This document shows positions 3,717 to 51,997 of a DNA stretch of 64,000 nucleotides, piece by piece; the stretch's first letter is position 1, and each line of letters opens with the position of its first letter. The DNA is taken from the IMG/VR virus record IMGVR_UViG_3300032220_000751; one strand, 5' to 3'. The translations under genes and the position numbers were made by a program. The notes beneath the pieces are model-generated. The model made no database searches. It was not told the origin of the DNA and saw nothing but the letters and a program-made list of their open reading frames with translations. The stretch is from a virus (taxonomy: Duplodnaviria; Heunggongvirae; Uroviricota; Caudoviricetes).

Positions 3717-5450
3717 ATGTTTTCTCATCCATTTTATTTCTTCTGGCAAAACAAGTCTCCGTTTTCCAATTGGTATATCCGGAACTTCAAAGTCAGAGAA
3801 ATGATCTTCAATTGCGTTGAGCAATACATGATGTACCAGAAGGCTGTGTTCTTTGGTGATTTGGAAACTGCTAAGCTTATCATGGCAGAATCCAAACCAA
3901 AGAAGCAGAAAGAACTGGGACGTCAGGTCAAAGGCTTCAATCGCATTGATTGGGATTCTGTAGTTGAGGATATCCTCTACACGGCTATCAAGGCCAAGTT
4001 CACCCAGCATCGTGATCTGGGTGAATTGATGCTAAGCATCACTGCGAAAGAATTCGTCGAAGCATCTCCGTATGACCGGATCTATGGTGTGCGATTGTCA
4101 ATGAATGACCCTCGCATCCAGTCAAAGAAATTATGGCTCGGCCTAAACAAGCTTGGGCGTGTGCTGACCCGAGTACGTAACTGGCTGTATGTCAAGAAGA
4201 AAGGAAAGAACATGATCGATCTGTCCCCGCATCATCCAGAAGTCATTATTCTGGATTTGACAGATGTGTTTGCCGATGCACAACGGCGGCTGGCACATAC
4301 GGGTGATGTGAATCTGCTGTTGCCCTCGATGGTCAGTAGCATCATGACGTGTGTGGAATGTCGTGATCCCGATATGACCCGGTTGGAAGTCTATGTCTCT
4401 GACTTGATCGAACAGTTCAAGAATGATGGCATGCCAACTGAGGATGGTGAAATTGCCGCAGCTATCGCTAAAGACATCGGACGTAAGCTTGTCTATGAGA
4501 TCGAGAAGATCGGCGGTTACGATGAGAACGATAATTTCGATTACGATGTCTATCGTGTGGAAATCTCCGGAGCTGTGGTACTGACTCGTCTGGATCCTGT
4601 GGGCGCTCGTGCTCAAGAGAAGAGGAAAGAATGGTTTCCTGATCCGGAAGCTGTTGGTAAATCGATTTCTTCAGGTAGCAGGGTTGACCATATGGTCATG
4701 GTCGATGACGACGGCAATCCAATCAAGACGTCTGTAGTGGATATCCCTGAACCCACTCAAGAACAGAAGGATCATATTGCTTCTTTCGAAGTTAAACTTC
4801 CTTCGCTTGAAGAAATGGAGAATCATCCGCATCAAGGATACTTCCAAGGCCAACACAATGTGCAATATGCTGCTAAGTTAGGAGAAGTAGTCACTCCTGA
4901 ACAGCAGCTGCAGAACTACGAAGCACATGAGCGTCGTGTGGTTATCGAGGAGAATGTCCCGGCTGCTGGTTTCCGTAGTCGTACGGAGTACGATCTCCCC
5001 AGTGAAGACTTTACTTCATCGACTGTTGAGTCCAATATCAGCAACAAAATCGATAAGATGCTTCATAGCCCTAAGTTCAATATGAAGTTTGCTCCTTGCG
5101 ATGATCTGGGAGAAATCTCTGTCAGATTGAACGGTCAAACCATTCAGAATCCAACACCTGAACAATTGTCCGAAGTTGCCAATAAGTTGGGTTTCGATGC
5201 AGCTGACGTCATCATGGGACAAGACAAAGGTTATCGTGAGGTTCCCTTGTCTGAAGTCAAAGAGTCTCCTTATAAAGAGATTCTCGACAATGCGTTCCAG
5301 GATCAGGAAAGGGTTATCATCAATGCAGCTCCACGCTACGTACCCCTTGGTATCGTAGACGGCGATCAACAACAACAGAAGTGGAAAGACACTACAACAG
5401 GGGAAGTGCTTACCAACGAAGAACGATTTAATCGAGTTTCAAAAGACTAA
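3717..5450 (+). CDS. NADAR (YbiA/DUF1768-like) domain protein with a ~400-aa C-terminal extension of unknown function
   Basis: N-terminal ~160 aa carry the NADAR hallmark (FFW..SPFSNWY...F...EQYMMYQKAVFFGD...LGRQVKGFNRIDWDSV...AKFTQ...L..T....VEASPYDRIYGV); the rest has no motif I recognise. Confidence 0.7.
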   Translation: MFSHPFYFFWQNKSPFSNWYIRNFKVREMIFNCVEQYMMYQKAVFFGDLETAKLIMAESKPKKQKELGRQVKGFNRIDWDSVVEDILYTAIKAKFTQHRDLGELMLSITAKEFVEASPYDRIYGVRLSMNDPRIQSKKLWLGLNKLGRVLTRVRNWLYVKKKGKNMIDLSPHHPEVIILDLTDVFADAQRRLAHTGDVNLLLPSMVSSIMTCVECRDPDMTRLEVYVSDLIEQFKNDGMPTEDGEIAAAIAKDIGRKLVYEIEKIGGYDENDNFDYDVYRVEISGAVVLTRLDPVGARAQEKRKEWFPDPEAVGKSISSGSRVDHMVMVDDDGNPIKTSVVDIPEPTQEQKDHIASFEVKLPSLEEMENHPHQGYFQGQHNVQYAAKLGEVVTPEQQLQNYEAHERRVVIEENVPAAGFRSRTEYDLPSEDFTSSTVESNISNKIDKMLHSPKFNMKFAPCDDLGEISVRLNGQTIQNPTPEQLSEVANKLGFDAADVIMGQDKGYREVPLSEVKESPYKEILDNAFQDQERVIINAAPRYVPLGIVDGDQQQQKWKDTTTGEVLTNEERFNRVSKD

Positions 5451-7590: not shown

Positions 7591-7609
7591 TGATGCTTTC
7601 GTGGAATCG

Positions 7610-8105: not shown

Positions 8106-8679
8106 TGCAACGATGGTGCTGACGGTTCTGGCCTGCGCCATCGTCATCATACTCTCAATTGCAGTAGGTGGTATCATCCGGGCCATGAACCCTAAAAGGA
8201 TGATTCAAGAATATCGCTTTGTGAAATTGCACGGCGAAAATCATCTACCCATGGTGAGTCAACGATCCACCGACGGTGTGACTTACAAAGTAGCTGTAGG
8301 TACAGAAGATCAATTCGATGCATGGATGTCGATGGGTGTTTTTGATGATGAATTTCCCTACTTCGATTTTGATTTCTTATTAGATCATCGTGGCTGGACG
8401 ATGTCTGACGGTAGCGTCTATATGGTCAACCGTAGTTCCAAAGACAACTACCATGAATATCAGAGCATCATGCATGATCTGATCAAGGAACACCAAAAGC
8501 TTTATGGCGATGAGATTGGCCTTGAATCAACGGGTATGTATATCCCCAGTTATTTACAAGCAGCCATGGAGTATGAATACGCCGATCGTTTCCCAGGGGA
8601 ATGGGAAAAGTTCAAAGGTGAAAAAGAAGCAAAGAACTACGTAGAACCCATTGACCATTTCGTCAAACAACTCGCTTAA
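8095..8679 (+). CDS. membrane-anchored hypothetical protein (194 aa)
   Basis: Strong RBS AAGGAGG 5 nt before ATG 8095; N-terminal TM helix; the ORF-track start 7936 is upstream and looks non-coding. Confidence 0.55.
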   Translation: MDVSATMVLTVLACAIVIILSIAVGGIIRAMNPKRMIQEYRFVKLHGENHLPMVSQRSTDGVTYKVAVGTEDQFDAWMSMGVFDDEFPYFDFDFLLDHRGWTMSDGSVYMVNRSSKDNYHEYQSIMHDLIKEHQKLYGDEIGLESTGMYIPSYLQAAMEYEYADRFPGEWEKFKGEKEAKNYVEPIDHFVKQLA

Positions 8680-8695
8680 CTCAAGGAGCATCAAC

Positions 8696-9688
8696 ATGCC
8701 TCGTACCCTGAAAGACCTGATCAGCAATTCCATCTCGCAATCCAAGGTGCCAACCTTCAACGACATCAAAGCACCAGCATCATCGAAACCCCTGCCCTGG
8801 GAAAACAAGCAATCTCGTCTGACTCCGGAACAAGAGTTCCAGAAGTCGCTGAAGAAAGACGACAAGCCTGCTACGGTTGACCGCAGTGGCCTGGAACAAG
8901 TGAGCGATCCGGTCATGAAAGAAAACCTCACGCGTCTGGCTGATGCTGCTGAACGTATCGTGGCCAAGAAGCCTACCATCAAGGCAGTGGTCAAGCCCAA
9001 GAAGAAGCCGATGGTTTCCAAGGGTAAGGTCAAGCCGATCGATAAGCCTGCTCCGAAGCGTGAATCGATCACCCCCAAGGCCAAACCTACCGTGATCAAG
9101 ACCAAGGCTGTGACGCCTATCAAGTCTGGTAAAATGTCGGTCGGTGGTTTCGTGCAAGAGCTTAACAAAGCTGTCGGTAACACCAACGTGACTGCGGCAC
9201 CGGAACAAAAGAAAGGGGATGTGAATGCAGGTCAAAAGAAGGCTGGTCCCGGTCGTCCGAAGAGTGAAGGTAAGACCGCAGCACAAAAGCCGGGTAAGAG
9301 TGCACCTGCTAAGGGGGCTCCGGTGGGTAAGGCAGCAGCTGATAAACAAGCAGCTGTGAAGAAGGAAGTCAACAAGCCCAAGACGATGAAGAAGATCATC
9401 GACGCGGTTTCCGATCGCAAAGCATCGCCCAAGGAAATCGGTAAGAAGGTCGCTGACATCGTCGTGGAAGCCAAGAACGTGGCTACTAACAAAGAGATCG
9501 TTATCAATGCAAAAAACACCCCGGTTCAAGACAAGAAGGTTCCGGCCAAAGCGCTTCAATCTGCAGAAAAGCCCGCACCGAAGAAAGTCGTTCACGGTAA
9601 GGGTAATGTGTCTGCGCATAGCAGCAAGGCAAAACCGGTTCAATCTGGCAAAGCAGCTGGCAAAGCTGGCGTGAAGGCTAAGAAGTAA
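8696..9688 (+). CDS. lysine/alanine/proline-rich basic protein, histone-H1-like (putative DNA-binding or nucleoid protein)
   Basis: RBS AAGGAG 7 nt before ATG 8696; ~25% Lys with KPxx/AAGK repeats (KAKPVQSGKAAGKAGVKAKK); GC-rich codon usage. Confidence 0.6.
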   Translation: MPRTLKDLISNSISQSKVPTFNDIKAPASSKPLPWENKQSRLTPEQEFQKSLKKDDKPATVDRSGLEQVSDPVMKENLTRLADAAERIVAKKPTIKAVVKPKKKPMVSKGKVKPIDKPAPKRESITPKAKPTVIKTKAVTPIKSGKMSVGGFVQELNKAVGNTNVTAAPEQKKGDVNAGQKKAGPGRPKSEGKTAAQKPGKSAPAKGAPVGKAAADKQAAVKKEVNKPKTMKKIIDAVSDRKASPKEIGKKVADIVVEAKNVATNKEIVINAKNTPVQDKKVPAKALQSAEKPAPKKVVHGKGNVSAHSSKAKPVQSGKAAGKAGVKAKK

Positions 9689-9708
9689 TTTTCACAAAAG
9701 GTGAGTAC

Positions 9709-9891: not shown

Positions 9892-9926
9892 GTACTCACC
9901 ACCCTCAACTAAAAAGAAAGCTATTC

Positions 9927-10790
9927 ATGCTGAAAGTTCAAGTCGATTACCACGATGATGCTTTGTTCGACAGCACAGACTTCGAGCCGAAGATCATTAC
10001 TTTCCCTGGCGGGGAATGTCATGTGACTCTACCGGATGAATTGCTGGACAATCCACGTGCCCGTGCGTTTACCATTAAGACGCTGATCAAGAACGCCGAC
10101 CACATCATGCATTTGCTGATGGTTACAGACGCGATTCGTCGCCACTACGCGGGCTATCCGATTTTCCTACACATGCCGTACATTCCGTACGCACGTCAAG
10201 ACCGCGTAGCCAACCACGGCGAGTCTTTGTCGGCTCGTGTGTTCTGTGATCTGATCAATGCTCAGAACTACGAAGTCGTCAGCGTCGCTGATCCGCACAG
10301 CCCGGTGGTGGAAGCGCTGCTGAACCGCATCGACGTGGTCGATCCGATTTACATGGTCGAAGAAGTGCTGCAAAGCGATCTCTTCAAGGACGGTGTGGCG
10401 CTGGTTGCACCGGACGCAGGTGCCCGAAAGCGTGTGCTGAATATGGCCATGGAAGTCAACGTCGAAGACGTGATCTTTGCTGACAAGGTACGCGATACCA
10501 AGACTGGCAAGATCACCGGTACCGTGGTCAACAACGAAGTTCCTCAAGGTAAAGCTATTCTGGTCGTGGATGACATCTGTGACGGTGGTCGTACCTTCCT
10601 GGAACTGGGTAAGGTCTTAAAGGAGAAGACCGACCAACCGCTGTACCTGTACATTACCCATGGCATCTTCAGCAAAGGTCTGGAAGAACTCGGTAAGTAT
10701 TACGACCGTATCTTCACTGCCTACAACTGGAATGATGAAGAAGCCAACAATCCCCAACTGACCTTGATCAAGGAAGGAAATCTGCTGTGA
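9927..10790 (+). CDS. ribose-phosphate pyrophosphokinase (Prs) family protein; candidate ADP-ribose pyrophosphate synthetase of an NAD+ reconstitution pathway
   Basis: Prs motifs PYIPYARQDR and the nucleotide/PRPP loop VVDDICDGGRT; collinear with E. coli Prs; translationally coupled to the downstream NampT-like gene. Confidence 0.8.
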   Translation: MLKVQVDYHDDALFDSTDFEPKIITFPGGECHVTLPDELLDNPRARAFTIKTLIKNADHIMHLLMVTDAIRRHYAGYPIFLHMPYIPYARQDRVANHGESLSARVFCDLINAQNYEVVSVADPHSPVVEALLNRIDVVDPIYMVEEVLQSDLFKDGVALVAPDAGARKRVLNMAMEVNVEDVIFADKVRDTKTGKITGTVVNNEVPQGKAILVVDDICDGGRTFLELGKVLKEKTDQPLYLYITHGIFSKGLEELGKYYDRIFTAYNWNDEEANNPQLTLIKEGNLL

Positions 10791-12490
10791 GCGAACAACA
10801 AGAAAACATCGTCGAGAAAGTTGCCAATGGTCTCGTGCCATTCAACCTGGCAGACTTCTACAAGACTGGTCACCCAGCCATGTATCCTCAGGGTACTGAA
10901 ACCCTGGTGGCCAACTTTACCCCGCGCTCGGCCAAGTACGCTCCGGTACTGCCGGAATTGTTCGATAACAAGATCGTTTGGTTCGGCCTGCGTGGTTTCA
11001 TCCAGGAATGGCTGATCGATGTCTTCAATCGCGAGTTCTTCCAAAAACCCAAGGAAGAAGCCATCAAGAAGTACCGTCGTCGTATGGACACTTCTCTCGG
11101 TCCTGGTGCTGTCAGCATGAAGAAGCTGGAACTGCTCCATGATCTGGGTTACCTTCCGCTGGAAATTCGCGCCCTACCTGAAGGCGCTCGTGTGAACATC
11201 AAGGTACCGCCGGTACTGTTCATCAACACCGCTGGCCCTGAACTGTCGTGGGTGGCTACCTACTTCGAAACTCTGATGTCCTGCGAAAGCTGGAAAATCT
11301 CGACGGTCGGTACCATTGCTTTCGAGTTCCACAAGCTGCTGACCTACTTCGCTGTGTCCACTGGCGCGCCTCTGGACTTTGTGCGTTGGCAAGGTCACGA
11401 CTTCTCGTTCCGTGGCATGTCGGGTGTGCATGATGCAATGCGTACCTGCTCGGCTCACTTGCTGTCGTTCATGGGTACCGATACCATCCCGTCTATCGAC
11501 TACCTGGAAGACTACTACGACGCCGATTCCGACAAGGAACTGGTGGGTGGTTCGATCCCAGCATCGGAACACAGTGTGATGGCTCTGCGCATTCTGCTGA
11601 AGCTGAAGGAACTGGCCAAGCTGCCGGAGAACGCAGGTCTGACTCACAAGCAACTACGTAAGGCAGCTGAGCTGGAAGTGGTGCGTGACTATGCCATCAA
11701 GGAATACGACACTGGTCTGGTCTCCATGGTCTCGGATACCTTCGACTTCTGGAATGTGATCACTCACATCGCCAAGGTCCTGAAGCCTGAAATCATGCAA
11801 CGCAAGCCGGATGTGTTCGGTAATGCCAAGGTCGTCTTCCGTCCTGATTCGGGTGATCCAGTGTACATCCTGACCGGTTACAAGAACAGTGAAATCGTTG
11901 CTAATGGCGATGGTACTTTCACTGTCAATGCAACTGGCAGAGTCATCCAAGATCACGAGCGTCGTGGTGCTGTGGAATGCCTGTGGGATATCTTCGGTGG
12001 TACCGAAACCAGTCTCGGCTACAAGCTGCTGGATTCCCACGTCGGTCTGATCTACGGTGACTCGATCACTCTGCCGCGTGCTATGCGTATCCTGCGTCGT
12101 CTGCAAGACAAGGGCTTCGCATCCACCAACGTAGTCTTCGGTATCGGTTCGTACACTTACAACATGCTCTCCCGTGACGTCTTCGGTTGGGCCATGAAGG
12201 CGGTGTACGCGGTAGTCGATGGTGAGCCGGTTGAGATCTACAAGGATCCAGCAACTGACGACGGTATGAAGAAGTCGGCCAAGGGTCTGCTGCGTGTGGA
12301 TAAGGTAGGTAACAACTACTTCCTGACGGAGAACTGCACCCCGGAAGAGTTCGAAGGCGGTGAACTCAAGCCGGTGTTCCGTAATGGTGAGATGTTGGTC
12401 AAGCCTACCTTTAAGGAAGCCAAGGAACGTCTGCACCTTTCTTGGACGTGTCCGGAACCTAATAGCATCGTCTGGCAAGACGCTGCTTAA
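10787..12490 (+). CDS. nicotinamide phosphoribosyltransferase (NampT/NadV) family protein; alternatively Namat-like
   Basis: GTG start overlapping the Prs stop (GTGA), RBS AAGGAAGGAAA; NampT motifs DFYKTGH, LPLEIRALPEG, GHDFSFRG, PASEHS, VSDTFDFW, RPDSGDP, GDSIT, collinear with human NAMPT. Confidence 0.85.
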   Translation: MSEQQENIVEKVANGLVPFNLADFYKTGHPAMYPQGTETLVANFTPRSAKYAPVLPELFDNKIVWFGLRGFIQEWLIDVFNREFFQKPKEEAIKKYRRRMDTSLGPGAVSMKKLELLHDLGYLPLEIRALPEGARVNIKVPPVLFINTAGPELSWVATYFETLMSCESWKISTVGTIAFEFHKLLTYFAVSTGAPLDFVRWQGHDFSFRGMSGVHDAMRTCSAHLLSFMGTDTIPSIDYLEDYYDADSDKELVGGSIPASEHSVMALRILLKLKELAKLPENAGLTHKQLRKAAELEVVRDYAIKEYDTGLVSMVSDTFDFWNVITHIAKVLKPEIMQRKPDVFGNAKVVFRPDSGDPVYILTGYKNSEIVANGDGTFTVNATGRVIQDHERRGAVECLWDIFGGTETSLGYKLLDSHVGLIYGDSITLPRAMRILRRLQDKGFASTNVVFGIGSYTYNMLSRDVFGWAMKAVYAVVDGEPVEIYKDPATDDGMKKSAKGLLRVDKVGNNYFLTENCTPEEFEGGELKPVFRNGEMLVKPTFKEAKERLHLSWTCPEPNSIVWQDAA

Positions 12491-12503
12491 TTAGGGCATA
12501 AGG

Positions 12504-12534
12504 ACCGGTGTGGGTAACTCCACACCGGTTTTCA
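12504..12534 (+). terminator. rho-independent terminator
   Basis: ACCGGTGTGG-gtaact-CCACACCGGT then TTTT. Confidence 0.85.
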
Positions 12535-12550
12535 ACTTTACTTTACTCTC

Positions 12551-13150
12551 ATGGAAAACAATCTTATCGTATTAGACGGTGATGGTGTATTGGTCGACTA
12601 CCATCACGCCTATGCTCAGGCATGGGGTAAAGCATTCGGTGAAGTACCTGCAATCAAAGATCCCGATGCTTACTGGGCATTGGATCGTTACGATGTTCGT
12701 AAGCTTCATGGTGATGAACTGGATCACTTCAAGAAGCATATGGACTATGAATTCTGGGCTACCATGCCCGCCATGCCTGGTGCTGTAGAGGCATGTCAAA
12801 AACTGGTAGATGCAGGTTACAAATTGATCTGTGTAACCGCATTGGAAGATGAACACAAATCTGCGCGCTGGAAGAATCTGTTAGATCTGGGTATGCCTCT
12901 GGAAGGTATAGTTTGTACAGGACATGGGAATGATACGGCCAGTCCCAAGGCATCAGTCTTAAGTGTCTTGAATCCGGTGGCATTCGCAGATGACTTCGTG
13001 CACTATATGCGCGGCATTCCACCACACATCCATGCAGCTTTGATCATGCGTTCTAAGAACGGTACACCGAACGTCGGTCCTGATCTTAAGTTAGCTCATT
13101 CTCAACATGCTGATATTCTTAGCTTTGCGGAATATTGGGTCAATCGTTAA
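12551..13150 (+). CDS. HAD-superfamily hydrolase, 5'(3')-deoxyribonucleotidase (NT5C)-like
   Basis: Motif I IVLDGDGVLVD, motif II LICVT, motif III K, motif IV AFADDF; no obvious SD upstream. Confidence 0.65.
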   Translation: MENNLIVLDGDGVLVDYHHAYAQAWGKAFGEVPAIKDPDAYWALDRYDVRKLHGDELDHFKKHMDYEFWATMPAMPGAVEACQKLVDAGYKLICVTALEDEHKSARWKNLLDLGMPLEGIVCTGHGNDTASPKASVLSVLNPVAFADDFVHYMRGIPPHIHAALIMRSKNGTPNVGPDLKLAHSQHADILSFAEYWVNR

Positions 13151-13155
13151 CCCGG

Positions 13156-13187
13156 AAGGGGAGTTTTGCGACTCCCTTTCTTTTTTG
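13156..13187 (+). terminator. rho-independent terminator
   Basis: AAGGGGAGT-tttgcg-ACTCCCTT then TCTTTTTTGTC. Confidence 0.85.
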
Positions 13188-13206
13188 TCTTAAATAAGGA
13201 ACTATC

Positions 13207-14079: not shown

Positions 14080-14086
14080 TTTGTAG

Positions 14087-14116: not shown

Positions 14117-14139
14117 ACTTACTCTTGTAAAGAGAAATC

Positions 14140-20475: not shown

Positions 20476-20958
20476 ATGAACATTCGTATTGAACAAGCAG
20501 TAAATCTGGATCGCTGCGATGAATTCAGTCAGGTCTACGATCATTACTGGCGTGAAAATAGTCCAGATGAAGAAAGTGCTGCAGATACAGCAGCTGTCGC
20601 GTTTAAGAATTACCTTGCCAGTCCAGACAAGTATCGGTCTTTCTTCTTGATTGACGGTGATACTAATGCGATCGTTGGCTTTGCTAACATCCACATTAAC
20701 GTAGAGTTCTGCTCCTATGAACATGCGGTGTATGTAGCTGACCTATATGTTGCTCCGGAGTATCGGTATTACGGATTAGCAACACGAATGATAAACCATC
20801 TAGTAGAACTCTGCCAGCAAAATAACTGGAAGAAACTCTACTGGGTAACAGTATTGGAAAATGCTGAAGTAGAAGGTATTTGTACCAGACTTGCGAAGAG
20901 AAGAACGCATGTCTGGTATGAAATTCCAGTTCTGTATCAAGATCCAATTGATGAATAA
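20476..20958 (+). CDS. GNAT-family N-acetyltransferase
   Basis: Motif A VADLYVAPEYRYYGLATRMINHLVE. Confidence 0.6.
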   Translation: MNIRIEQAVNLDRCDEFSQVYDHYWRENSPDEESAADTAAVAFKNYLASPDKYRSFFLIDGDTNAIVGFANIHINVEFCSYEHAVYVADLYVAPEYRYYGLATRMINHLVELCQQNNWKKLYWVTVLENAEVEGICTRLAKRRTHVWYEIPVLYQDPIDE

Positions 20959-20970: not shown

Positions 20971-23453
<2,483 letters not shown>

Positions 23454-30761: not shown

Positions 30762-31568
30762 ATGGAAGAACCTAATCCATTTGAGTTATCCCCAGAGCAG
30801 ATCAAGCAGTTTCATGAGGAACTTCCTCGTGTAATGAGTCAGCGGCTTGATCTCGATGAGGTAATAAGGGTACAACGAATTCGTAATGAGAGAAAAATGA
30901 AAGATCCAACATACGCACCGGTGTATGCAGCGCTGTACCCTGAGCTGACAAAGATAGCCCGTAAACACGGCTATGCGATGGCGGTTCATGGAACACTTGC
31001 AAGGGATATGGACTTGATCTGTGTCCCGTGGATGGACCACGCATCCAAACCTGACGATGTGATTGATGAGATTGTCAATTCGTTCCACATCGTTCGTGTG
31101 GGCGGTCTCACCAGACATGCTCACAATCGTGTTGTTCAAACGATCAGCATCGGACATGGTGAATGCTTCCTCGATCTGTCTTTCATGTATCGTTGGAATA
31201 CGATTGATGAAGTCGATGGCATGCAACGTAGTGAACTTGCTGTATGGAATCTGATTGATTTTTGTGGCAAGAACCCAGTCGAAATCAAAGCAGTCGATCA
31301 GAGAGCGTGGGAGCATCTGATGATCTATATCCCTAAAGAAACACTTCTGAAGGGATTGGAGTTCAAGATGAAACATTCGGATGACCCTGAGAAGCTGCAA
31401 AAGGAAATCACCCGTATCACAGGTAAGCAACCGGATACATTAGCATCTGTCGAAGAAGCTGAGTTAAACGGTGGTCAGCCTATTGTTCAAGGTGAGTCAC
31501 ACAAGGTATTTCAACGGGTAGGGGATCCTATTCCAGACCCATCTAATCAAAAGGAAAACAACACATGA
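30762..31568 (+). CDS. hypothetical protein (268 aa), co-translated partner of the SPFH gene
   Basis: ORF; ATGA overlap with the downstream SPFH gene; start uncertain (alternative start at 30687). Confidence 0.5.
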   Translation: MEEPNPFELSPEQIKQFHEELPRVMSQRLDLDEVIRVQRIRNERKMKDPTYAPVYAALYPELTKIARKHGYAMAVHGTLARDMDLICVPWMDHASKPDDVIDEIVNSFHIVRVGGLTRHAHNRVVQTISIGHGECFLDLSFMYRWNTIDEVDGMQRSELAVWNLIDFCGKNPVEIKAVDQRAWEHLMIYIPKETLLKGLEFKMKHSDDPEKLQKEITRITGKQPDTLASVEEAELNGGQPIVQGESHKVFQRVGDPIPDPSNQKENNT

Positions 31569-32458
31569 ACTACGAAGAAATGCAACAGGCTAAAGTCGAT
31601 GCCGCAGAACAGAAACAAAAACAACTTTACCGTCGTATCAAAATAATCGCGGCGGTATTCTTCCTCTTGGTTGTGGGGGTTGTCTTAAATCCGGTGGTGA
31701 TCGTACAGCCGGGTTATCGCGGTGTGGTGACACACATGGGCGCTACCCAAAAGGTTGTCTTGGAAGAAGGCTTGAATTTCGTCATGCCGATCCGTGACTC
31801 CGTACATCAGATTTACGTCGGTATCAAGAAGACTGAAACTGATGGTGAATCGGGTACATCGGATTCCCAGAAAGTCGATGTGAAGGTAGCGATCAATTGG
31901 CACCAACTGCCGAACTCGACACCTTACATCTACAAAGAACTGGGTAATGATGCTGAATCTCGTATTCTCATGCCAGCAATTCTGGATGCGATGAAGGGTG
32001 CTGTTGGTAAGTTCCGTGCAGAAGAATTGATTGTACAGCGTGACGAAGCACGGAACAAGATTACCGAACGTCTGCGCAAGATCGTTAACCCTCATGGTAT
32101 CGAAATTGATGAGACGTCTATCACCAGTCTGTCATTCTCCAAAGCATTCGATAAATCGATCGAAGAGAAGATCGTAGCTGAGCAAAAGAAGAAACAAGCT
32201 GAATTCGATTTGGCTCGTATCGAAGTGGAAGTGCGCCAAGAGTTAGCCAAGGCTACTGGTGTTGCTGCTCAGATGAAAGCTAAGAGTAAGGAAATCACTC
32301 CTGACCTTCTGGCACAGCAAAAGCTGGATAATGAGCGCGCAGCCATTGATAACCAGAAAGACTTCATTGCTAAGTGGGATGGCAAGCTGTCTAATGTTTC
32401 TGGTAGCGGCGGCATGCCGTTCTTTATGACTTTGCCTTCTACTGGCTCTGGTAAATAA
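31565..32458 (+). CDS. SPFH/band-7 (prohibitin/HflK-like) membrane protein
   Basis: N-terminal TM helix IIAAVFFLLVVGVVL, PHB-domain-like core (VQPGYRGVVTHMG...), C-terminal coiled coil; RBS AAGGAAAA. Confidence 0.75.
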   Translation: MNYEEMQQAKVDAAEQKQKQLYRRIKIIAAVFFLLVVGVVLNPVVIVQPGYRGVVTHMGATQKVVLEEGLNFVMPIRDSVHQIYVGIKKTETDGESGTSDSQKVDVKVAINWHQLPNSTPYIYKELGNDAESRILMPAILDAMKGAVGKFRAEELIVQRDEARNKITERLRKIVNPHGIEIDETSITSLSFSKAFDKSIEEKIVAEQKKKQAEFDLARIEVEVRQELAKATGVAAQMKAKSKEITPDLLAQQKLDNERAAIDNQKDFIAKWDGKLSNVSGSGGMPFFMTLPSTGSGK

Positions 32459-32505: not shown

Positions 32506-33756
32506 ATGGAAGATACTCGCGTTTTAGCACGCATCGTCCGTATCGACGATGTTTTACCTCACCCCAATGCCGACAAGATGCAACTGGGCATCGTCGGTGG
32601 TTGGCAGTGCTGCATCAAACTGGACGAATTTAAGAAGGGCGATCTGGCCTTGTACTGCGAGATCGATTCTCTCTTGCCTGTCTCGGTCCCTGAATTTGCT
32701 TTCCTGGAAGACCGTAAGGAATCCATCAAGGTAGTCAACGAAGTCGTCTACTCCCGTATCAAGACGATCCGGCTGCGTAAGGAACTGTCCCAAGGTCTGT
32801 TGGGTAAGATCCCACGTCAACTGGGTAAAGTAGTTGAAGGTCAAGACGTGACTGAAGCACTTGGCATCATCAAATACGAGAAGAAGCAAACTCGTGTCAG
32901 TGACGGTCCTGAACTGAAACCTGGTCTGATCAAACGCTTCTGCGAATGGCTGAGGAAAGACATCAAGGATGATCTGCTGCTGCCATGGCCTTACTTCATC
33001 AAGAAGACAGAACAAGAGCGCGTTCAGAATCTGCATTCCCAGTACCTCAAAGCAGTTGAGGATGGTGAGACCTTTGAAGAATCGGTGAAGTTAAACGGTG
33101 AATCGTTTACTGCCTTCTTCGTATTCAAAGATGGTGTCCATGGTCACGCTGGTGTTTGCTCACGCAACTATGAGATCCAGACTACTGATGTAGTTTGGAC
33201 CTGGAAGCAATCCTTCCGTTATTGGCTGTCTCGCTTCGTGGGTGGTAACTCTCGTATTCTGCGGACCCGGCACTTTGTCTGGCCTGATTGGCGTACTGGC
33301 GTCAAAGCCGATGATGATCCATTCGTACGCCACTGGAAACGTTTGGATCTGGCTAAGAAGCTGGAAGACTACCAGTACAAGTCAGGTGTACAGATTGCCA
33401 TTCAGGGTGAGTTAGCTGGTCCTGGACATCAGAGCAATAAGGAAGGTCTGGAGACTGCTGACGTCTACGTGTATCAAGTATACGTGATCGATTCTGACTT
33501 CGGTATGAAGATGGGTCTGCTATTACCAGAAGACGCACGTCGGGTGACAGAGGAACTTGGTCTGAAGTACGTTCCTGTTCCTGAGAAGAACGCTAAGCTA
33601 CCACCTACCATCAAGGAAGCCTTGCTGCGTGCGGATGGTCCGGCTTATTTCGATAAGAGCCGCAGTCGTGAAGGTCTGGTCTACAAGAGCAATACCCGTG
33701 ACTTCTCGTTCAAGGTGATTAGTAACAAGTTCTTGGAAAAGAACGAGGACGAATAA
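32506..33756 (+). CDS. ATP-dependent RNA ligase-like nucleotidyltransferase with N-terminal tRNA-binding-type OB domain
   Basis: N-terminus VLPHPNADKMQLGIVGGW resembles the tRNA-binding (Myf-like) OB domain; motif I KLNGES (KxxG as in Rnl2/Rnl5), EGLVYK and FKVISNKF as motifs IV/V. Confidence 0.6.
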   Translation: MEDTRVLARIVRIDDVLPHPNADKMQLGIVGGWQCCIKLDEFKKGDLALYCEIDSLLPVSVPEFAFLEDRKESIKVVNEVVYSRIKTIRLRKELSQGLLGKIPRQLGKVVEGQDVTEALGIIKYEKKQTRVSDGPELKPGLIKRFCEWLRKDIKDDLLLPWPYFIKKTEQERVQNLHSQYLKAVEDGETFEESVKLNGESFTAFFVFKDGVHGHAGVCSRNYEIQTTDVVWTWKQSFRYWLSRFVGGNSRILRTRHFVWPDWRTGVKADDDPFVRHWKRLDLAKKLEDYQYKSGVQIAIQGELAGPGHQSNKEGLETADVYVYQVYVIDSDFGMKMGLLLPEDARRVTEELGLKYVPVPEKNAKLPPTIKEALLRADGPAYFDKSRSREGLVYKSNTRDFSFKVISNKFLEKNEDE

Positions 33757-35203: not shown

Positions 35204-35953
35204 ATGCCTCGGGAAATTACTGAGATGGAAGGATGGGTAGATATGGAGGTGCGTCTGCGCATCTTCCCGTTCTACTACAAGAAGAAGCTCGAACAGTTGT
35301 ACAAGGACGGTAAGGTCAAGAAGGAAGAAGACTTCGCTGTCGTCAAAGAACTGATGCGCGTACTGGATGGGTTCGGTGTCCCCTTCTATGGTGGTGACTT
35401 CGAGATGATCAAGGGTCAGTGGCCCGAGGCTGAAGTACAGTTCTCTGAGATGTTGGAACCATCTGCACGTTTGAAGTATCTGACTCCAGAACAGCGCAAG
35501 CAGTTAGAGGACGTCATGGGTGACTGTAATCCAGAGAACAACACCGTCTGGGATAACATCCTGAGGGCACTGGAAGTAGCGCGTCAACTGGATCAGTGGG
35601 GTATTCCTCACCATGAATTCCCGCCACCGAAGAGTGACATGGACTGGATGATGCAGGAAATGAAGACGTATCGTCCTTATTACTCTGTACCTTACCATGA
35701 AATGATCACTAAGCAATGGCAGAAAGGTCTCTCAACTCAGCAGCAGATCGATTGTCTATTCCCACATGAGAAGGAGATCTTGGCTCCTGAACTGATCGCC
35801 TACATCGAAGCCAACACCCCTGAGAAGCGATGGAATTGTGAGAAAGCATTGGAGCGAGCCATGAAGGTGTTGGGTGTTCCCAGTACGGTCAGTGAACTCA
35901 ATTCCCGTAATGCATTCAAAGATCGTATTTTGGCTGTTATCGAAAAGGAGTAA
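35204..35953 (+). CDS. hypothetical protein (249 aa)
   Basis: RBS AAGGA; ORF. Confidence 0.55.
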   Translation: MPREITEMEGWVDMEVRLRIFPFYYKKKLEQLYKDGKVKKEEDFAVVKELMRVLDGFGVPFYGGDFEMIKGQWPEAEVQFSEMLEPSARLKYLTPEQRKQLEDVMGDCNPENNTVWDNILRALEVARQLDQWGIPHHEFPPPKSDMDWMMQEMKTYRPYYSVPYHEMITKQWQKGLSTQQQIDCLFPHEKEILAPELIAYIEANTPEKRWNCEKALERAMKVLGVPSTVSELNSRNAFKDRILAVIEKE

Positions 35954-35956
35954 TTG

Positions 35957-36529
35957 ATGGCGAACTTCACCAAGGTGAGGGAGGGTGTCTACATCGTCCG
36001 TACACAGGCTGGCTTCAGACGAGCCTTTAAGGACTGGGATGGTGGTAGCTCAGATAACCTGAGTGAATCATTACGTCGTATGTCCGGATATCCAAAGTCG
36101 TACCCGTCCTTGGTGATGTTTTCCTATGGCGGGCGTGACTGGGATCCATACCCGGTATGTACAGACGTGCACGTCAACGTGTTGCAAGGAGCGATTGTTG
36201 AATCTGAGCAACAACAGCGTATTAAGTTAGGATTACCTGTGGAAAAGACCAAAGAAGAATTAGCAGCTGAAGTACATCAGTTGCGCAAAGAGAATCAACT
36301 GATGCATTATCGCATGGCTGCGCTGGAACTCAAAGCCAAGCAGTACAAGATGCATTATGAGTCCGCTAACAAGGCTCGTCTGAAAGCAGATGATTTCCGG
36401 GCAGAGACATGGTCTGGATTGAATGCGTCCGTGGACAAAGCCTATAGCGAAATCAAGAATGATCCGAGTATGCTGAGCGCGACCTTTGTTGAACTGAAAG
36501 AACGTATCGTTTCGTTGTTTAGCAAGTGA
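35957..36529 (+). CDS. hypothetical protein (190 aa) with coiled-coil segment
   Basis: ATG 35957 behind AAAAGGAG (the ORF opens at TTG 35954). Confidence 0.55.
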   Translation: MANFTKVREGVYIVRTQAGFRRAFKDWDGGSSDNLSESLRRMSGYPKSYPSLVMFSYGGRDWDPYPVCTDVHVNVLQGAIVESEQQQRIKLGLPVEKTKEELAAEVHQLRKENQLMHYRMAALELKAKQYKMHYESANKARLKADDFRAETWSGLNASVDKAYSEIKNDPSMLSATFVELKERIVSLFSK

Positions 36530-36534
36530 TTATT

Positions 36535-36580
36535 GGGAGAGGGCTTAGGCTCTCTCCCTTTATGCCTTCTTATTTTTACT
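36535..36580 (+). terminator. rho-independent terminator
   Basis: GGGAGAGGGC-ttag-GCTCTCTCCC (1 mismatch) then TTTATGCCTTCTTATTTTT. Confidence 0.8.
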
Positions 36581-36613
36581 GTACTGTTCTATTGGATGTA
36601 GCTATTAACTAAC

Positions 36614-37630
36614 ATGGAAATGAACATGAACAAAGTCGCCCTGAAAGAACTCCTGCTGGAAAAGATCGAAGATGAAGAATACGTAGCTTCGATCTGGAGA
36701 GGTATCCCTAACAATGTCGCCGATACCCAGCAGCTGGGGATGGCTTTGGTTACTGCAATCAACGACACCCGTAAACTCACGGGTAAGAAAGAGATGATCG
36801 AACTGACAGAACTGGACTTTGAGTTCCAGTACCTGCTGGCAGTTCATAAGCTGGGTAGCCACAGCGTCATCCTGAACGCACATCACCAATCTGAAAAGGT
36901 GGAGGGTTCCATTGAAGTTTCTTTCATGAAAAATGGTCATGTCATCCGTGTGTCTGAAACGCCGGAAGAGATCCGTGCCAGTATGGCTGAGATCGCTGTC
37001 GATCCGAATGCATCGGCAGACGAACGTTTAGCCGCTCAAGCTGTTGAACTGGGGAAAGATCAGGTTGAGAACCTGTCTCAAGCACTGGCCGCTACCCAAG
37101 CCAAACTGAACGATCTGCAGATGCTCCATGATGACGTCATGAACCGTCTGACTGGTCGTGATCTGACGATTGTGGTGCATGGTGGTTCTGATGAGCATAA
37201 CAGCATCATCACCAACTACATCGTCAAAAACATCGTCGACCAGATGTTCATCGAAGAAGATGGCGTTCGCCGTCTGAAGCCTGAAATCTTTGATACCGAA
37301 GATGTTACCACTGGTGAAGACCTTCGCTACGTGATCGGCGAACTGATTCTGGTACACCCGCACTTGAAGACTATTCAGCTGCGTGAACTGTACACTGCAG
37401 TGGTTCAGGCTATCAGTAACATGAACGTTTTGCAGAGCGCTGCAAGTGATCTGGGTATCCGTCTGATGGATGAGAGCGGTGCACCGTCTGGTGAACCACA
37501 AGCCGAACGTCTGGGCAGGCTTTGCGCCGACGTCATGAGCGTGACTGCTTTCGTACTGGCTGAAGGTTTGGAAGTAGCACTGATCGACAATCGCGACATT
37601 AACCGTGAAGAGGTGAATGATGCCAACTGA
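36614..37630 (+). CDS. hypothetical protein (338 aa)
   Basis: Long ORF; no clear SD. Confidence 0.55.
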   Translation: MEMNMNKVALKELLLEKIEDEEYVASIWRGIPNNVADTQQLGMALVTAINDTRKLTGKKEMIELTELDFEFQYLLAVHKLGSHSVILNAHHQSEKVEGSIEVSFMKNGHVIRVSETPEEIRASMAEIAVDPNASADERLAAQAVELGKDQVENLSQALAATQAKLNDLQMLHDDVMNRLTGRDLTIVVHGGSDEHNSIITNYIVKNIVDQMFIEEDGVRRLKPEIFDTEDVTTGEDLRYVIGELILVHPHLKTIQLRELYTAVVQAISNMNVLQSAASDLGIRLMDESGAPSGEPQAERLGRLCADVMSVTAFVLAEGLEVALIDNRDINREEVNDAN

Positions 37631-37970
37631 AGGTGAGCACGTAGATAAACCGGTGGATGATAGATATTATCAGGCCAGACCGACGTTCTATTCCGGCATT
37701 GTCAATGAACGGACATCGGACGCCATGACCAGTCTGAAGTGTAATCTCATTGTCGCATTGATAAATGCTGGTGTTGTCGATGCGCGTGTTGGTATGGAAC
37801 CCTGTGAACTGAGCATCATTTTGAATGATACTCGTGTACGGGTTGAGATGAACAACTGGGGAATGAAGTCGACCTTTGAGATCGATATCAGTGAGCAGAC
37901 CAAAGTGGCAGCGGCAAGAAGCGGCTCTATGGTCGATTCCCTCTCAATAGCTGCGATGAAATGTACCTAA
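37617..37970 (+). CDS. hypothetical protein (117 aa)
   Basis: ATGATG start overlapping the upstream gene end; ORF. Confidence 0.5.
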   Translation: MMPTEGEHVDKPVDDRYYQARPTFYSGIVNERTSDAMTSLKCNLIVALINAGVVDARVGMEPCELSIILNDTRVRVEMNNWGMKSTFEIDISEQTKVAAARSGSMVDSLSIAAMKCT

Positions 37971-38236: not shown

Positions 38237-38848
38237 ATGCTGATCAAAAAGAATGACGACGGTTCATTTCAAGTACTGCTGGCTTATGAAGGTCAGACTA
38301 TCGGTAATCTCAAAGCAGTGGTGTCTGCTAAGGTCTTGGATGAAACTTATCTCGACTTCAAGACGGGTAAACGCCACTTCCAATCGGAACTGGATCATCC
38401 TCGCTATAAGTTTGATCCGATGAAACAAGCGCAAGCAATCATCGATGATAACTTAGGTGATCCTCAGATGGAAGCGATGGAGCGCGCTATGACGATCAAG
38501 CTTGAGAACGTCTGCGGTTACATCACTGACATGTTACTGCTTCGTCCTGAGTCTATCGGGATCGACATTCTGATTGGTACGTGGAAGTTCAACGGACCGA
38601 TGAAAGAAGTAGCAGAGAAGTGCTATAAGGAAACAGGTGATGTGAAACTGTCTCTGCGTGCATTCTCCAATGGTACCGGTACCTGCAACGGTATTAATGT
38701 CGTCAAGGTCATCACCTGGGACTTCGTTGACCCCAACGAAAAGTACAAGCAGGATCTGTACGAGACGCTTGGCCAAGAGAAGGCAGATAGCCTGATTCGT
38801 TATCTGAACAACGAACCCCTTACTCAACCGGATAATCATGCTGATTGA
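38237..38848 (+). CDS. hypothetical protein (203 aa), tandem paralogue of 38838
   Basis: RBS AAAAAGG; MLIKKNDDGSFQVLLA..., VCGYITD, ETGDVKL and VITWDF align with the next gene. Confidence 0.55.
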   Translation: MLIKKNDDGSFQVLLAYEGQTIGNLKAVVSAKVLDETYLDFKTGKRHFQSELDHPRYKFDPMKQAQAIIDDNLGDPQMEAMERAMTIKLENVCGYITDMLLLRPESIGIDILIGTWKFNGPMKEVAEKCYKETGDVKLSLRAFSNGTGTCNGINVVKVITWDFVDPNEKYKQDLYETLGQEKADSLIRYLNNEPLTQPDNHAD

Positions 38849-39452
38849 AAAATACGACGATGGTTCATGTTTGGTTCTGCTGGCGTTTACCGAACAGATC
38901 ATGAACAACAATGCGATCCTGACGTATACGGCGATCGATAAACTGATGCAGCGTTATAATAACGAAGAATGTCGTCGCAGTCCGTTTTATACGGAATACG
39001 GTCATCCGCATCTGGATCGTCGGGATTACTATACAGATGAACTGGATGGTGAAGGTAAGGTATTGAACGACCGCCTATTCCAGTTCAACATGGATCGTGT
39101 TTGCGGGATGATCGATGATCTGCATGTGGAGAAGCGCCCTAACCTGCGGCACATCTTGACCGGTGTTTGGTCACCCTATGGACCATATGCTTCTGAAGCA
39201 GCGAAGCTGATCCATGAAACAGGTCAAATCAAATTGGGTCCACGGTCACTGTGTGATTTGGTTTCCAATGGTAAAGGCGGTATGACTGGTACAGTAGCCA
39301 AACTCATTGGTTGGGACTTCATGAACCCGTATGACCAATCCATCACTTCCATGGCTAAACTGGATACACACATCTGTCATCCTGTTCGCTACTGGATAGA
39401 TGACAGTGCTCCTCCAGTCCCACTCCCAGAAAAACAACTCGAACTAGGTTGA
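38838..39452 (+). CDS. hypothetical protein (204 aa), tandem paralogue of 38237
   Basis: MLIEKYDDGSCLVLLA..., VCGMIDD, ETGQIKL, LIGWDF; overlaps the upstream gene by 11 nt. Confidence 0.55.
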   Translation: MLIEKYDDGSCLVLLAFTEQIMNNNAILTYTAIDKLMQRYNNEECRRSPFYTEYGHPHLDRRDYYTDELDGEGKVLNDRLFQFNMDRVCGMIDDLHVEKRPNLRHILTGVWSPYGPYASEAAKLIHETGQIKLGPRSLCDLVSNGKGGMTGTVAKLIGWDFMNPYDQSITSMAKLDTHICHPVRYWIDDSAPPVPLPEKQLELG

Positions 39453-39724: not shown

Positions 39725-40336
39725 ATGCAGAAATTCCGTACCTTCCAGATGGTCACAACGAACCAAGCGTTGTCCTCTGTGAAGAACAACAACATCAAGC
39801 TACCAGCAGGTAGCGAGGTCATTGTCCGTAGGTTCGTCACTGGTGGGGTGTTTAACCATTACGAAGTCTTTGAAATTGAAGACTACGATCAAGAACGTCC
39901 CTTCCAAGCACAGACACACCAACTGGTTGAAAGTTACGTCAAAGGTAATTCAGCCATGCGTGTGTATCTGGCTGGACCGATGGCTGGTTACCCTGAGAAT
40001 AACTACCCCGCATTCCATCGAGGAGCGGCGTGGCTGCGTTCTAAAGGCTACGAGGTAGTTTCTCCCGCCGAGATTAACTTCGACGCTCCTAAGCGCTATA
40101 AAGAGCTTGAGAGTAAATTCACAGGCGATGAACTGAGTCTTGAAAAACAAAGCATTGTCAATGAATGCCTGAAGAAAGACTTTGTTGAACTGTTGAGTTG
40201 TGAACTCATTGTCAAGATGAAGGGTTGGCAAGAATCGACGGGTGTCAACAAAGAAATTGATCTGGGTAACTTTGTCGCTATTGGCAGCGTTGAGCTGAGT
40301 GAAATCATGATGATCACCGACGGGGTGGTGACGTGA
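39725..40336 (+). CDS. DUF4406 / nucleoside 2-deoxyribosyltransferase-like domain protein with ~90-aa N-terminal extension
   Basis: VYLAGPMAGYPENNYPAFHRGAAWLRSKGYEVVSPAE matches the DUF4406 core pattern. Confidence 0.5.
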   Translation: MQKFRTFQMVTTNQALSSVKNNNIKLPAGSEVIVRRFVTGGVFNHYEVFEIEDYDQERPFQAQTHQLVESYVKGNSAMRVYLAGPMAGYPENNYPAFHRGAAWLRSKGYEVVSPAEINFDAPKRYKELESKFTGDELSLEKQSIVNECLKKDFVELLSCELIVKMKGWQESTGVNKEIDLGNFVAIGSVELSEIMMITDGVVT

Positions 40337-49119: not shown

Positions 49120-49434
49120 ATGACAGATGTACATCTGAAAGACTGTCCTTTCTGTGGGGCAACACCACCGAAGGACTTGTCTGATACTCTGTATCCATCT
49201 GGTACCTGGTGGCGAATTAATGATGGTTATCGCCACTATGTCGCCCATCGAGACCGGGAGCCAGGAGACAACATGTGTTGGCAAGTAATCTGTAATGAAG
49301 TCTATGGCGGATGTGGTGCCGAGATATCAGCAGATAGCGAGCAAGAAGCAATTGATAAGTGGAACCATCGCGATACGTGGTTCAAGCGCACCTGGAGAAA
49401 GTTATGCCGTTTGCTCAAGCGCAGGAAAGTCTGA
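49120..49434 (+). CDS. Lar-family restriction-alleviation-like protein with C-terminal basic extension
   Basis: RBS TAGGAGAA; LKDCPFCGA...C.QV.CNEVYGGCGAE...EQEAIDKWNHR matches the Lar family pattern. Confidence 0.55.
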   Translation: MTDVHLKDCPFCGATPPKDLSDTLYPSGTWWRINDGYRHYVAHRDREPGDNMCWQVICNEVYGGCGAEISADSEQEAIDKWNHRDTWFKRTWRKLCRLLKRRKV

Positions 49435-51217: not shown

Positions 51218-51997
51218 ATGAAAGTAAGTGACATCCCATCAACAATTGGCTGGGAAGTAGTTGTCAATGGTGGACGTGATCTGGGAATGGATACAGAGAA
51301 ACGTAAACTCATTGGGAAGACTTGTATCTTGATCAAGCAGTGCAAGAGCGGTCTCATGCAGATCAGTTACAAGGGTAATCTCTACAGTGTACCCTTGACT
51401 GCGCTGGATGTCAAGTCAGACAATCCAGCATTAAACATCAGAAAACACAATCAAAGGAATAACATGACTCAAGACGTCATCACCAACGAAACAACCAAGG
51501 TTCGCCTGACCACCAACTTCGGTGAGATCCTGCTGGAACTCAACAATGCCGCTGCCCCGGAAACCGTCAAGAACTTCCTACAATACGTCAACGACAAGTT
51601 CTACGACGGTACCATCTTCCATCGCGTCATCGACGGCTTCATGATCCAAGGTGGTGGTTACACCTCCATCACGAGCGAAAAGCACGTGCCCAAGGAAACC
51701 CGTGAAGCCATTCCGAACGAAGCCAAGAACGGTCTGAAGAACGAGCCTTACACCATCGCCATGGCACGTACCGCAGCACCTCAATCGGCTACGGCTCAGT
51801 TCTTCATCAACGTGAAGAACAACAGCTTCCTGGACTATCCGGGTCAAGACGGTTGGGGTTACTGCGTCTTCGGTAAGGTGATCGACGGTGAGAAGACCAT
51901 CGATCGTATCAAGGCAGTCAAGACCGAACGCCGTGGCATGTTTGCTGACGTACCTGTGGATGAAGTTGTCATCCAGAAAGCCGAAGTGGTGGAATGA
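51218..51997 (+). CDS. cyclophilin-type peptidyl-prolyl cis-trans isomerase fused to an ~82-aa N-terminal domain
   Basis: C-terminal 178 aa: FGEILLELNNAAAPETVKNF..YVND.FYDGTIFHRVIDGFMIQGGG...YTIAMAR...SATAQFFIN...LD...GYCVFGKVIDG; an internal ATG at 51464 could be an alternative start. Confidence 0.75.
   Translation: MKVSDIPSTIGWEVVVNGGRDLGMDTEKRKLIGKTCILIKQCKSGLMQISYKGNLYSVPLTALDVKSDNPALNIRKHNQRNNMTQDVITNETTKVRLTTNFGEILLELNNAAAPETVKNFLQYVNDKFYDGTIFHRVIDGFMIQGGGYTSITSEKHVPKETREAIPNEAKNGLKNEPYTIAMARTAAPQSATAQFFINVKNNSFLDYPGQDGWGYCVFGKVIDGEKTIDRIKAVKTERRGMFADVPVDEVVIQKAEVVE

Follow-up and report, generated by a model that had tools for sequence, protein, structure and literature searches.

A probable NAD+ reconstitution module in a jumbo phage and its relatives in betaproteobacterial nrtR-prs-nadV operons

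A stretch of 64,000 nucleotides from a virus of the Caudoviricetes (IMG/VR record IMGVR_UViG_3300032220_000751), referred to as the window, was analysed for two adjoining genes, here called open reading frame (ORF) A and ORF B, which an original prediction had proposed as a candidate route for rebuilding NAD+. We found that the two genes very probably form an NAD+ reconstitution pathway 1 (NARP1) module, with ORF A as the Adps (ADP-ribose pyrophosphokinase) and ORF B as the Namat (nicotinamide ADP-ribose transferase). NARP1 is already described and common, being present in 4.3% of phages (Osterman et al., 10.1101/2024.02.11.579819), and as such the pair is a further example. New here are the closest relatives of the pair, which are chromosomal nrtR-prs-nadV operons of Betaproteobacteria rather than phage genes, and a HAD phosphatase gene that follows ORF B in a gene order repeated on one Duganella-like contig. 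The gene structure, the family and clade membership, the signature residues and the neighbourhood statistics given below were observed directly. The source is an uncultured jumbo phage with a genome of about 310 kb, since the DNA is found in identical form on 16 metagenome contigs, which come from several samples and of which the longest has 310,154 bp. Among known phages the sole match at the DNA level was 321 bp at 75% identity (Pseudomonas phage UAVern); therefore it has no close cultured relative.

On the NARP1 reading, a host NADase effector of the TIR, SIR2 or SEFIR type would split NAD+ into ADP-ribose (ADPR) and nicotinamide. ORF A would then pyrophosphorylate ADPR at position 1'' with the beta-gamma pyrophosphate taken from ATP, resulting in ADPR-pyrophosphate (ADPR-PP), to which ORF B would join nicotinamide to give NAD+ directly, without a nicotinamide mononucleotide (NMN) adenylyltransferase (NMNAT). 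The two proteins would be expressed as one unit via a coupled stop/start, possibly co-transcribed with the downstream HAD phosphatase gene. Both reactions are inferred from the sequence, as are the preferred substrates and a role in counter-defence.

Structure and family membership of the gene pair

Both ORFs were located on the + strand as originally predicted, with the following features:

9927..10790, + strand: ORF A, 287 aa, ATG start, Adps-like member of the Prs family
10787..12490, + strand: ORF B, 567 aa, GTG start, Namat-like member of the NampT family
10770..10790, + strand: Shine-Dalgarno sequence AAGGAAGG (10770-10777) and GTGA stop/start overlap (10787-10790)

The TGA of ORF A (10788-10790) overlaps the GTG of ORF B (10787-10789) by way of the 4-nt GTGA, and AAGGAAGG is present 9 nt 5′ of this GTG. 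Independent gene callers gave the same 287-aa and 567-aa products and the same 4-nt overlap on the identical metagenome contigs. It may be noted that an in-frame GTG at codon 17 of ORF B is an alternative start, from which the essential Asp23 and Tyr25 would still be retained. The overlap implies that translational coupling is likely, although the earlier statement that the genes must be co-translated was too strong. A sigma-70 promoter scan gave 0 matches on the + strand 5′ of ORF A, which is uninformative as a jumbo phage may use its own polymerase.

The assignment of ORF A to the Prs family and of ORF B to the NampT family is far above chance and agrees with the original prediction. ORF A matches Pfam PF13793/PF00156, TIGR01251 (123 bits for a cut-off of 113) and phrog_619 (1e-86), and ORF B matches PF04095 (2.4e-35), NF006629 (501 bits for a cut-off of 405) and phrog_448 (6e-172). 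The motifs quoted earlier for ORF A are also present as such, with PYIPYARQDR at residues 84-93, DPHS at 122-125 and VVDDICDGGRT at 213-223. The pair thus corresponds to the operational definition of NARP1, namely a Prs homologue of the Adps clade with a Namat homologue within ten genes (Osterman et al., 10.1101/2024.02.11.579819), as ORF B directly follows ORF A and shares 4 nt with it.

Residues, clades and neighbours that separate Adps/Namat from Prs/Nampt

For ORF A, the experimentally validated Adps of ICP1, SPbetaL1 and FADO and a Bas63-like proxy were used as alignment references, with E. coli Prs for contrast. The proxy is taken from Felixounavirus LF82P1, which belongs to the Bas63 genus and is not Bas63 itself. 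On curated Prs models ORF A resembles the Adps references and not E. coli Prs. With TIGR01251, where ORF A has its 123 bits, two validated Adps and the proxy reach 98-122 bits and E. coli Prs 423; with PRK01259 the values are 106 for ORF A, 74-91 for the Adps references and 532 for E. coli Prs; and with phrog_619 they are 292, 246-324 and 193, respectively. Only the broad TIGR01251 is passed by ORF A, which on the NCBIfam models at the Prs subfamily/equivalog level obtains 61-107 bits against cut-offs of 296-536. A profile-HMM comparison of Adps/Namat with Prs/NampT had been proposed as a check at the outset; in it ORF A scores like Adps, and the models on the ORF B side (PHROGs and NCBIfam) are non-discriminating.

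The following sites of ORF A were located by alignment:

10290..10301, + strand: DPHS motif, residues 122-125 (canonical Prs DLHA)
10479..10514, + strand: catalytic beta-hairpin ADKVRDTKTGKI, in which Lys187 aligns with Lys185 of ICP1 Adps
10569..10598, + strand: PP (donor) loop DDICDGGRTF, residues 215-224

As described for the ICP1 enzyme, Adps features are a remodelled PP donor loop, which is conserved across Adps homologues, Lys185 on a beta-hairpin and the loss of the alpha11-alpha12 C-terminal regulatory/filament module (PMC13586617). The donor loop of ORF A is identical to that of the Bas63-like Felixounavirus Adps and is the modal motif among viral Namat-linked Prs-like proteins (31 of 70). 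ICP1 has DDICDGAASF at this place, the Gram-positive Adps of SPbetaL1 and FADO differ with DDLSSFGGTF, and E. coli Prs has DDMIDTGGTL, the Prs pattern being DDM[IV]DT[GA]GTL. The replacement of DLHA by DPHS, to which the original prediction had drawn attention, is real with respect to E. coli Prs and is a signature of the Adps family: each of the four reference Adps has D/E-P-H-S, which is also the form seen most often among viral Adps-linked proteins, whereas DLHA is found in the E. coli and B. pseudomallei Prs. Also, ORF A has THGIFS in common with ICP1 and Bas63-like Adps where Prs has THPIFS, and in the alignment it stops about 25 residues short of the E. coli Prs end, as do all Adps references, so being without the C-terminal helices of Prs.

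The change K185A in ICP1 Adps abolishes ADPR-PP formation (PMC13586617). The corresponding Lys187 of ORF A is kept in Prs too, and would therefore indicate catalytic competence and not specificity. Similarly, ICP1 Arg87, His121, Asp161, Lys185 and Asp212/213/216 are all conserved in ORF A, and Prs has the same residues. A neighbour-joining (NJ) tree places the Prs of E. coli and B. pseudomallei apart from every Adps-like sequence, ORF A among them, with a bootstrap support of 100/100; for the three canonical Prs taken together the support is 71/100.

For ORF B, the best match in the PDB is the SPbetaL1 Namat 9w5x/9w5w (E 4e-124), and mammalian Nampt chains reach 2.5e-47 at best. ORF B is 40-47% identical to the three validated Namats and the Bas63-like proxy, and 28% identical to KVP40-type Nampt. 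The catalytic core is conserved throughout (D23, Y25, F/R at 206/209, H262, R352, D354, G424 and D425). Two generic models, phrog_448 and NF006629, were tried as discriminators and rejected, as their scores for Namat and for KVP40 Nampt are similar. A fold comparison would not discriminate between the two either, since Namat and Nampt structures superpose at about 1 Å. The second-best solved relative of ORF B, PDB 9ke8/9keo (E 7e-106), is labelled Nampt and has the non-aromatic clamp GAQTYQRNTRD; it is 58% identical to Bacillus-phage Namats over the N-terminal fragment compared.

A Namat has a Nampt-like core with an added adenine 'selectivity clamp', formed by a helix motif (SCH) and a variable loop (SCL) (PMC12774641). 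The published SCH motif is GS-X-phi-X-phi-X-phi-TRD with aromatics at positions 3 and 7, and the rule for the SCL is Arg/Lys/Tyr at the third position plus a stacking residue (PMC12774641). Both elements were located in ORF B:

12146..12178, + strand: selectivity-clamp helix (SCH) GSYTYNMLSRD, G454-D464, Namat-type motif
10928..10939, + strand: selectivity-clamp loop (SCL) S48-A49-K50-Y51, by alignment

The SCH of ORF B has the Namat-type length, Tyr at positions 3 and 5, and Asn as phi2. On comparing the viral loci, the pattern is GS[FY]T[YF][QNE]x.[TS]RD in the Namat-type and G[GA]LLQxxx[DNT]RD in the Nampt-type. Therefore the clamp of ORF B would be of the Namat type, distinct from the Nampt G[GA]LLQ, with the published consensus matched in part. 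The SCL has Lys third and then an aromatic, as in the Bas63-like SDKW, which is a weak discriminator since KVP40-type Nampt has GGKF in a shorter loop.

Among the known modules, the NARP1 of Bas63 (Felixounavirus) and of the Vibrio phage ICP1 are alike in the order Adps then Namat, with identities of 36-39% for Adps and 40-44% for Namat. The resemblance to the Bas63-like Felixounavirus goes further, as it has the identical donor loop, DPHS and THGIFS (the last two also in ICP1), the K-aromatic SCL, and a Namat of 593 aa with two long insertions that are also present in ORF B. The differences are that position 7 of the SCH is Met in ORF B and not Tyr, that the window genes overlap by 4 nt whereas those of Bas63/ICP1 are separated, and that host range and genome type are not the same, the window being part of an uncultured jumbo phage genome of about 310 kb. 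The NARP1 of the Bacillus phages SPbetaL1 and FADO is alike at 46-47% identity; the nicotinamide, ribose-phosphate and catalytic residues are all kept in ORF B, as are the SCH length and Phe/Tyr at position 3. However, the SPbetaL1 Namat has only 491 aa, is without the two insertions and uses Arg40 in its SCL. The Adps side is most likely of the Gram-negative Bas63/ICP1 type, and the Namat falls in a sub-clade together with those of the betaproteobacterial NrtR operons, with the Met variant of the clamp.

Two sets of viral loci from IMG/VR were compared, the 80 most like ORF B (41-66% identical to it) and the 80 most like KVP40 NadV (25-31%). A Prs-like gene is present within 3 kb in all 75 of the Namat-type loci with enough flank, the remaining five of the 80 ending at a contig edge. 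Among the 80 Nampt-type loci such a neighbour was found in 1 case, a weak match. In the NJ tree the Namat-type and Nampt-type sequences are split in 100/100 bootstraps, with ORF B and all validated Namats on the side opposite to KVP40. ORF B thus groups by sequence with the Adps-associated Namat clade and not with the KVP40-type Nampt clade. KVP40 carries NARP2, which consists of a Nampt (NadV) and an NMNAT (NatV), and no phage was found to have both NARP1 and NARP2 (10.1101/2024.02.11.579819). The NARP2 of KVP40 shares with the pair the NampT fold, the catalytic core and NAD+ as end product. It differs in its 28% identity, its clade (100/100), the clamp-equivalent GGGLLQQLDRD and the lack of a Prs-like partner, and it needs an NMNAT. 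When PRPP and ADPR-PP compete, KVP40 NadV favours PRPP.

The absence of an NMNAT from the 64 kb, as claimed earlier, holds for the sequence covered. A Pfam scan of the window ORFs with 100 aa or more, in which the four at 35204..37970 were 31 aa short, gave no cytidylyltransferase-like or NadR/NadM domain, a six-frame scan of the window gave no HxGH nucleotidyltransferase motif, and the precomputed Pfam annotation of the 10 kb flanking the window at either end also shows no NMNAT. It may be noted that in KVP40 the NMNAT is not within 10 kb of NadV.

These results bear directly on the classical salvage reading, in which ORF A would be a phosphoribosyl pyrophosphate (PRPP) synthetase and ORF B would make NMN, in the manner of a NARP2 with its own PRPP supply, and the NMNAT would be encoded elsewhere in the genome or by the host (NadR/NadD). 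Several points weigh for it and against NARP1. Position 7 of the SCH, where SPbetaL1 Namat has the adenine-stacking Tyr396, is a non-aromatic Met in ORF B, which also has Ser for Thr398 and Leu at the third small-residue (phi3) position, so that 8 of 11 positions fit the published consensus. In ORF A the position of the adenine contact Phe92 of ICP1 Adps is Ala, a position which is also variable among the Adps references. Of the roughly 310 kb of the genome, the NMNAT search spans about 84 kb, comprising the window and both 10-kb flanks. Our trees are by neighbour joining, with three canonical Prs as the only outgroups, two of them partial, and the deep nodes in both clades are poorly supported. 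We also found no biochemically tested member of the betaproteobacterial sub-clade that includes ORF A and ORF B. Finally, Namat enzymes keep PRPP-dependent NMN synthesis in vitro (PMC12774641), and a mixed or PRPP-preferring ORF B is therefore conceivable. The same salvage reading is the historical one for nrtR-prs-nadV operons (PMC2330246), to which the closest relatives of the pair belong, and it is not affected by phrog_448 and NF006629, which do not separate Namat from Nampt.

Yet the scores of ORF A lie far under the NCBIfam Prs cut-offs below the TIGR01251 level and are like those of validated Adps, its ribose-5-phosphate and donor loops are the Adps version, ORF B falls outside the KVP40-type Nampt clade with a Namat-type clamp, and phage Nampt-type genes are almost never found beside a Prs-like gene. 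Regarding the Met, it is seen in 6 of about 73 Adps-linked viral motifs, among which the exact string GSYTYNMLSRD occurs twice, and most of the closest (betaproteobacterial) relatives of ORF B have it. Most sequence discriminators thus agree with NARP1, the adenine-clamp motif doing so partly, and we prefer NARP1 over salvage by Prs and NampT, as was originally predicted; the salvage reading appears quite improbable.

Relatives in chromosomal nrtR-prs-nadV operons

Both proteins have their closest homologues on the chromosomes of Betaproteobacteria (56-62% identity for ORF A and 64-70% for ORF B), in the genera Duganella, Chromobacterium, Paraburkholderia, Achromobacter, Burkholderia and Ralstonia, and the best identities among phage homologues are 42-50%. 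In NJ trees, ORF A and ORF B nest in the betaproteobacterial clade with 98-100% bootstrap support. In all five loci looked up, the pair is adjoined by the regulator NrtR (Nudix with winged helix) in a non-prophage context. We then took one genome per species and the 80 bacterial loci closest to ORF B (L191-L270), whose species span Proteobacteria, Bacteroidota, Cyanobacteria and Verrucomicrobia. A Prs-like gene is present within 6 kb in 78 of these and an NrtR homologue in 71. The full phage-type clamp motif is found in most of the 80 loci, e.g. SYTYQYVTRD, and the variant GS[FY]TYNML[ST]RD is common to the phage ORF B and its closest betaproteobacterial relatives. Also, the same 4-nt overlap is present in two Duganella loci (L011 and L186).

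The pair therefore most likely shares recent ancestry with the chromosomal NrtR-controlled prs-nadV operons of Burkholderiales and Chromobacterium, and it seems to have been exchanged with a host lineage of the Burkholderiales type, by transfer in one direction or the other. The GC content is 47% in the phage as against 54-68% in the bacterial loci. Unlike the operons of Duganella, Chromobacterium, Paraburkholderia, Achromobacter and Ralstonia, the phage copy is without nrtR in the window, as tblastn gave no NrtR homologue there (best E 0.7) and the Pfam scan no NUDIX match.

Bacterial nrtR-prs-nadV operons have always been annotated as PRPP/NMN salvage. In S. oneidensis, NrtR is freed from the prs-nadV operator by ADP-ribose, and the dedicated second prs was called unexplained (Rodionov et al. 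2008, PMC2330246). An inducer of this kind fits a pathway that consumes ADP-ribose. Since the bacterial loci carry the Namat-type clamp motif, it is suggested that many of these operons carry out ADP-ribose-to-NAD+ recycling and not PRPP/NMN salvage, and the classic 'salvage' operons may in reality be bacterial NARP1. As a separate observation, in one Chromobacterium piscinae locus (L182, 6772-7676) an Xre/MbcA-like antitoxin and a RES-domain toxin lie immediately 3′ of the nrtR-prs-nadV operon. RES-domain toxins are an NAD+-degrading toxin family.

This ancestry raises the possibility that the pair has the same biochemistry without a counter-defence role, being a recently captured host housekeeping or recycling operon that would feed the NAD+-consuming enzymes of the phage or recycle ADP-ribose from ADP-ribosylation cycles. 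The chromosomal, non-prophage and NrtR-regulated relatives in many bacterial species are in its favour, as is the presence in the window of an NAD-dependent DNA ligase and a NADAR protein, and some bacteria may use NARP1 for housekeeping (Osterman et al., 10.1101/2024.02.11.579819). However, the ligase yields NMN and AMP and not ADP-ribose, and so does not feed the pathway. The phage copy would also have lost nrtR, which points to constitutive or phage-timed expression, and the phage NARP1 modules that have been tested (Bas63, SPbetaL1 and FADO) act against NADase defences (10.1101/2024.02.11.579819). We consider a pure housekeeping role unlikely and retain NARP1 with a counter-defence role as the preferred reading. 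It may be noted that the theme of NAD+ and ADP-ribose metabolism proposed earlier for this DNA holds but is a loose one for the same reason; the ligase and NADAR genes are both real as per the Pfam scan.

The HAD phosphatase gene and the rest of the window

Three features follow ORF B:

12501..12532, + strand: strong GC hairpin in the ORF B-HAD gene interval, followed by a weak T tail (-23 kcal/mol, z = -4.8, 0/200 shuffles fold as well)
12551..13150, + strand: HAD-superfamily (NT5C-like) phosphatase, 199 aa, 3′ of ORF B, candidate third gene
13154..13191, + strand: intrinsic-terminator-like site directly 3′ of the HAD gene, a 12-bp stem followed by TTTTTTGTCTT

The hairpin at 12501..12532 was not called by the terminator scan because only 4 T follow, and could act as a leaky terminator or in RNA stability. 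The site at 13154..13191 is the sole intergenic consensus terminator on the + strand in 7600-14200, with two weaker + strand matches inside ORF A. In the HAD protein the DxDxV, Lys133 and DD147/148 motifs are conserved or invariant. No sequence relative was found in the PDB. An AlphaFold2 (AF2) model has a pLDDT of 95.9 and its Foldseek matches are generic HAD-fold proteins at a TM score of about 0.6; therefore the fold gives no substrate clue. The family is small, and its closest members are in Oxalobacteraceae.

A phosphatase attached to the pair is known from NARP1-AP of the Vibrio phage Gary, which consists of Adps, the Macro-domain phosphatase Adpp (an ADPR-1''-phosphatase) and Namat (10.64898/2026.01.28.702374). 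The window resembles it in having a phosphatase gene attached, although this is of the HAD/NT5C and not the Macro type and lies after the Namat gene behind a hairpin instead of between the two genes. No Macro Pfam match was obtained by hmmscan in the scanned neighbours of the pair (an upstream 60-aa ORF was left out). The HAD gene is a possible third component of the unit. In a three-gene variant of NARP1, it would replace Adpp and dephosphorylate phosphorylated ADP-ribose for use by Adps and Namat; the substrates may be, as examples, ADPR-1''-phosphate (from RES-type NADases) or 2'-phospho-ADPR (from NADP+ cleavage). The position of the gene between ORF B and the sole intergenic consensus terminator is consistent with this, and one Duganella-like bacterial contig (L186, HAD gene at 3267-3875) again has the genes in the order nrtR-adps-namat-HAD-Band7, with identities of 60/69/52%. 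But 160 other Namat-type loci, 80 of them bacterial and 80 viral, lack the HAD gene beside the pair, and two other HAD homologues stand alone, which makes the three-gene variant doubtful. If it were true, NAD+ reconstitution would have recruited an accessory phosphatase a second time, independently of Adpp.

Most other ORFs of the window had no match in the Pfam scan. Those genes and ORFs that could be described are as follows:

3717..5450: NADAR gene, 577 aa, with an N-terminal NADAR domain and a C-terminal part of 420 aa without family assignment
8651..9688: low-complexity Lys/Ala/Pro-rich ORF, 330-345 aa, without family match, just 5′ of the module
20476..20958 and 23010..23453: GNAT acetyltransferase genes flanking the ligase on both sides
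20980..23013: NAD-dependent DNA ligase (Pfam)
31565..32458: SPFH/Band7 protein
32506..33756: RNA ligase with PHA02142 OB fold
38237..38848 and 38838..39452: two tandem overlapping Peptidase_S80 paralogs (phiKZ-type prohead protease; Pfam)
39725..40336: DUF4406
49120..49434: Lar-like restriction-alleviation protein
51218..51997: cyclophilin-type prolyl isomerase
56531..57424: HD_4 (RelA/SpoT-type HD) protein

The prohead-protease paralogs of the phiKZ type fit the jumbo-phage origin of the window. Elsewhere, three viral loci have a NADAR gene as immediate neighbour of Namat/Adps, in one case between both genes, and one locus has it beside a KVP40-type Nampt (L065 5909-6364, L089 3783-4226, L053 14092-14532 and L117 9371-9742).

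As NARP1 reverses NAD+ depletion, a phage that carries it would overcome many unrelated defence systems at once, and knowing which phages carry it helps in predicting host range and in choosing therapeutic phages. In terms of mechanism the present pair adds little, with some modest extra interest in its link to the bacterial operons, in the Met in its clamp and in the HAD gene that follows it. What it does is to connect the literature on phage NARP1 with that on bacterial nrtR-prs-nadV operons, whose 'second prs' has been unexplained since 2008 and of which the one operon tested, that of S. oneidensis, is induced by ADP-ribose.

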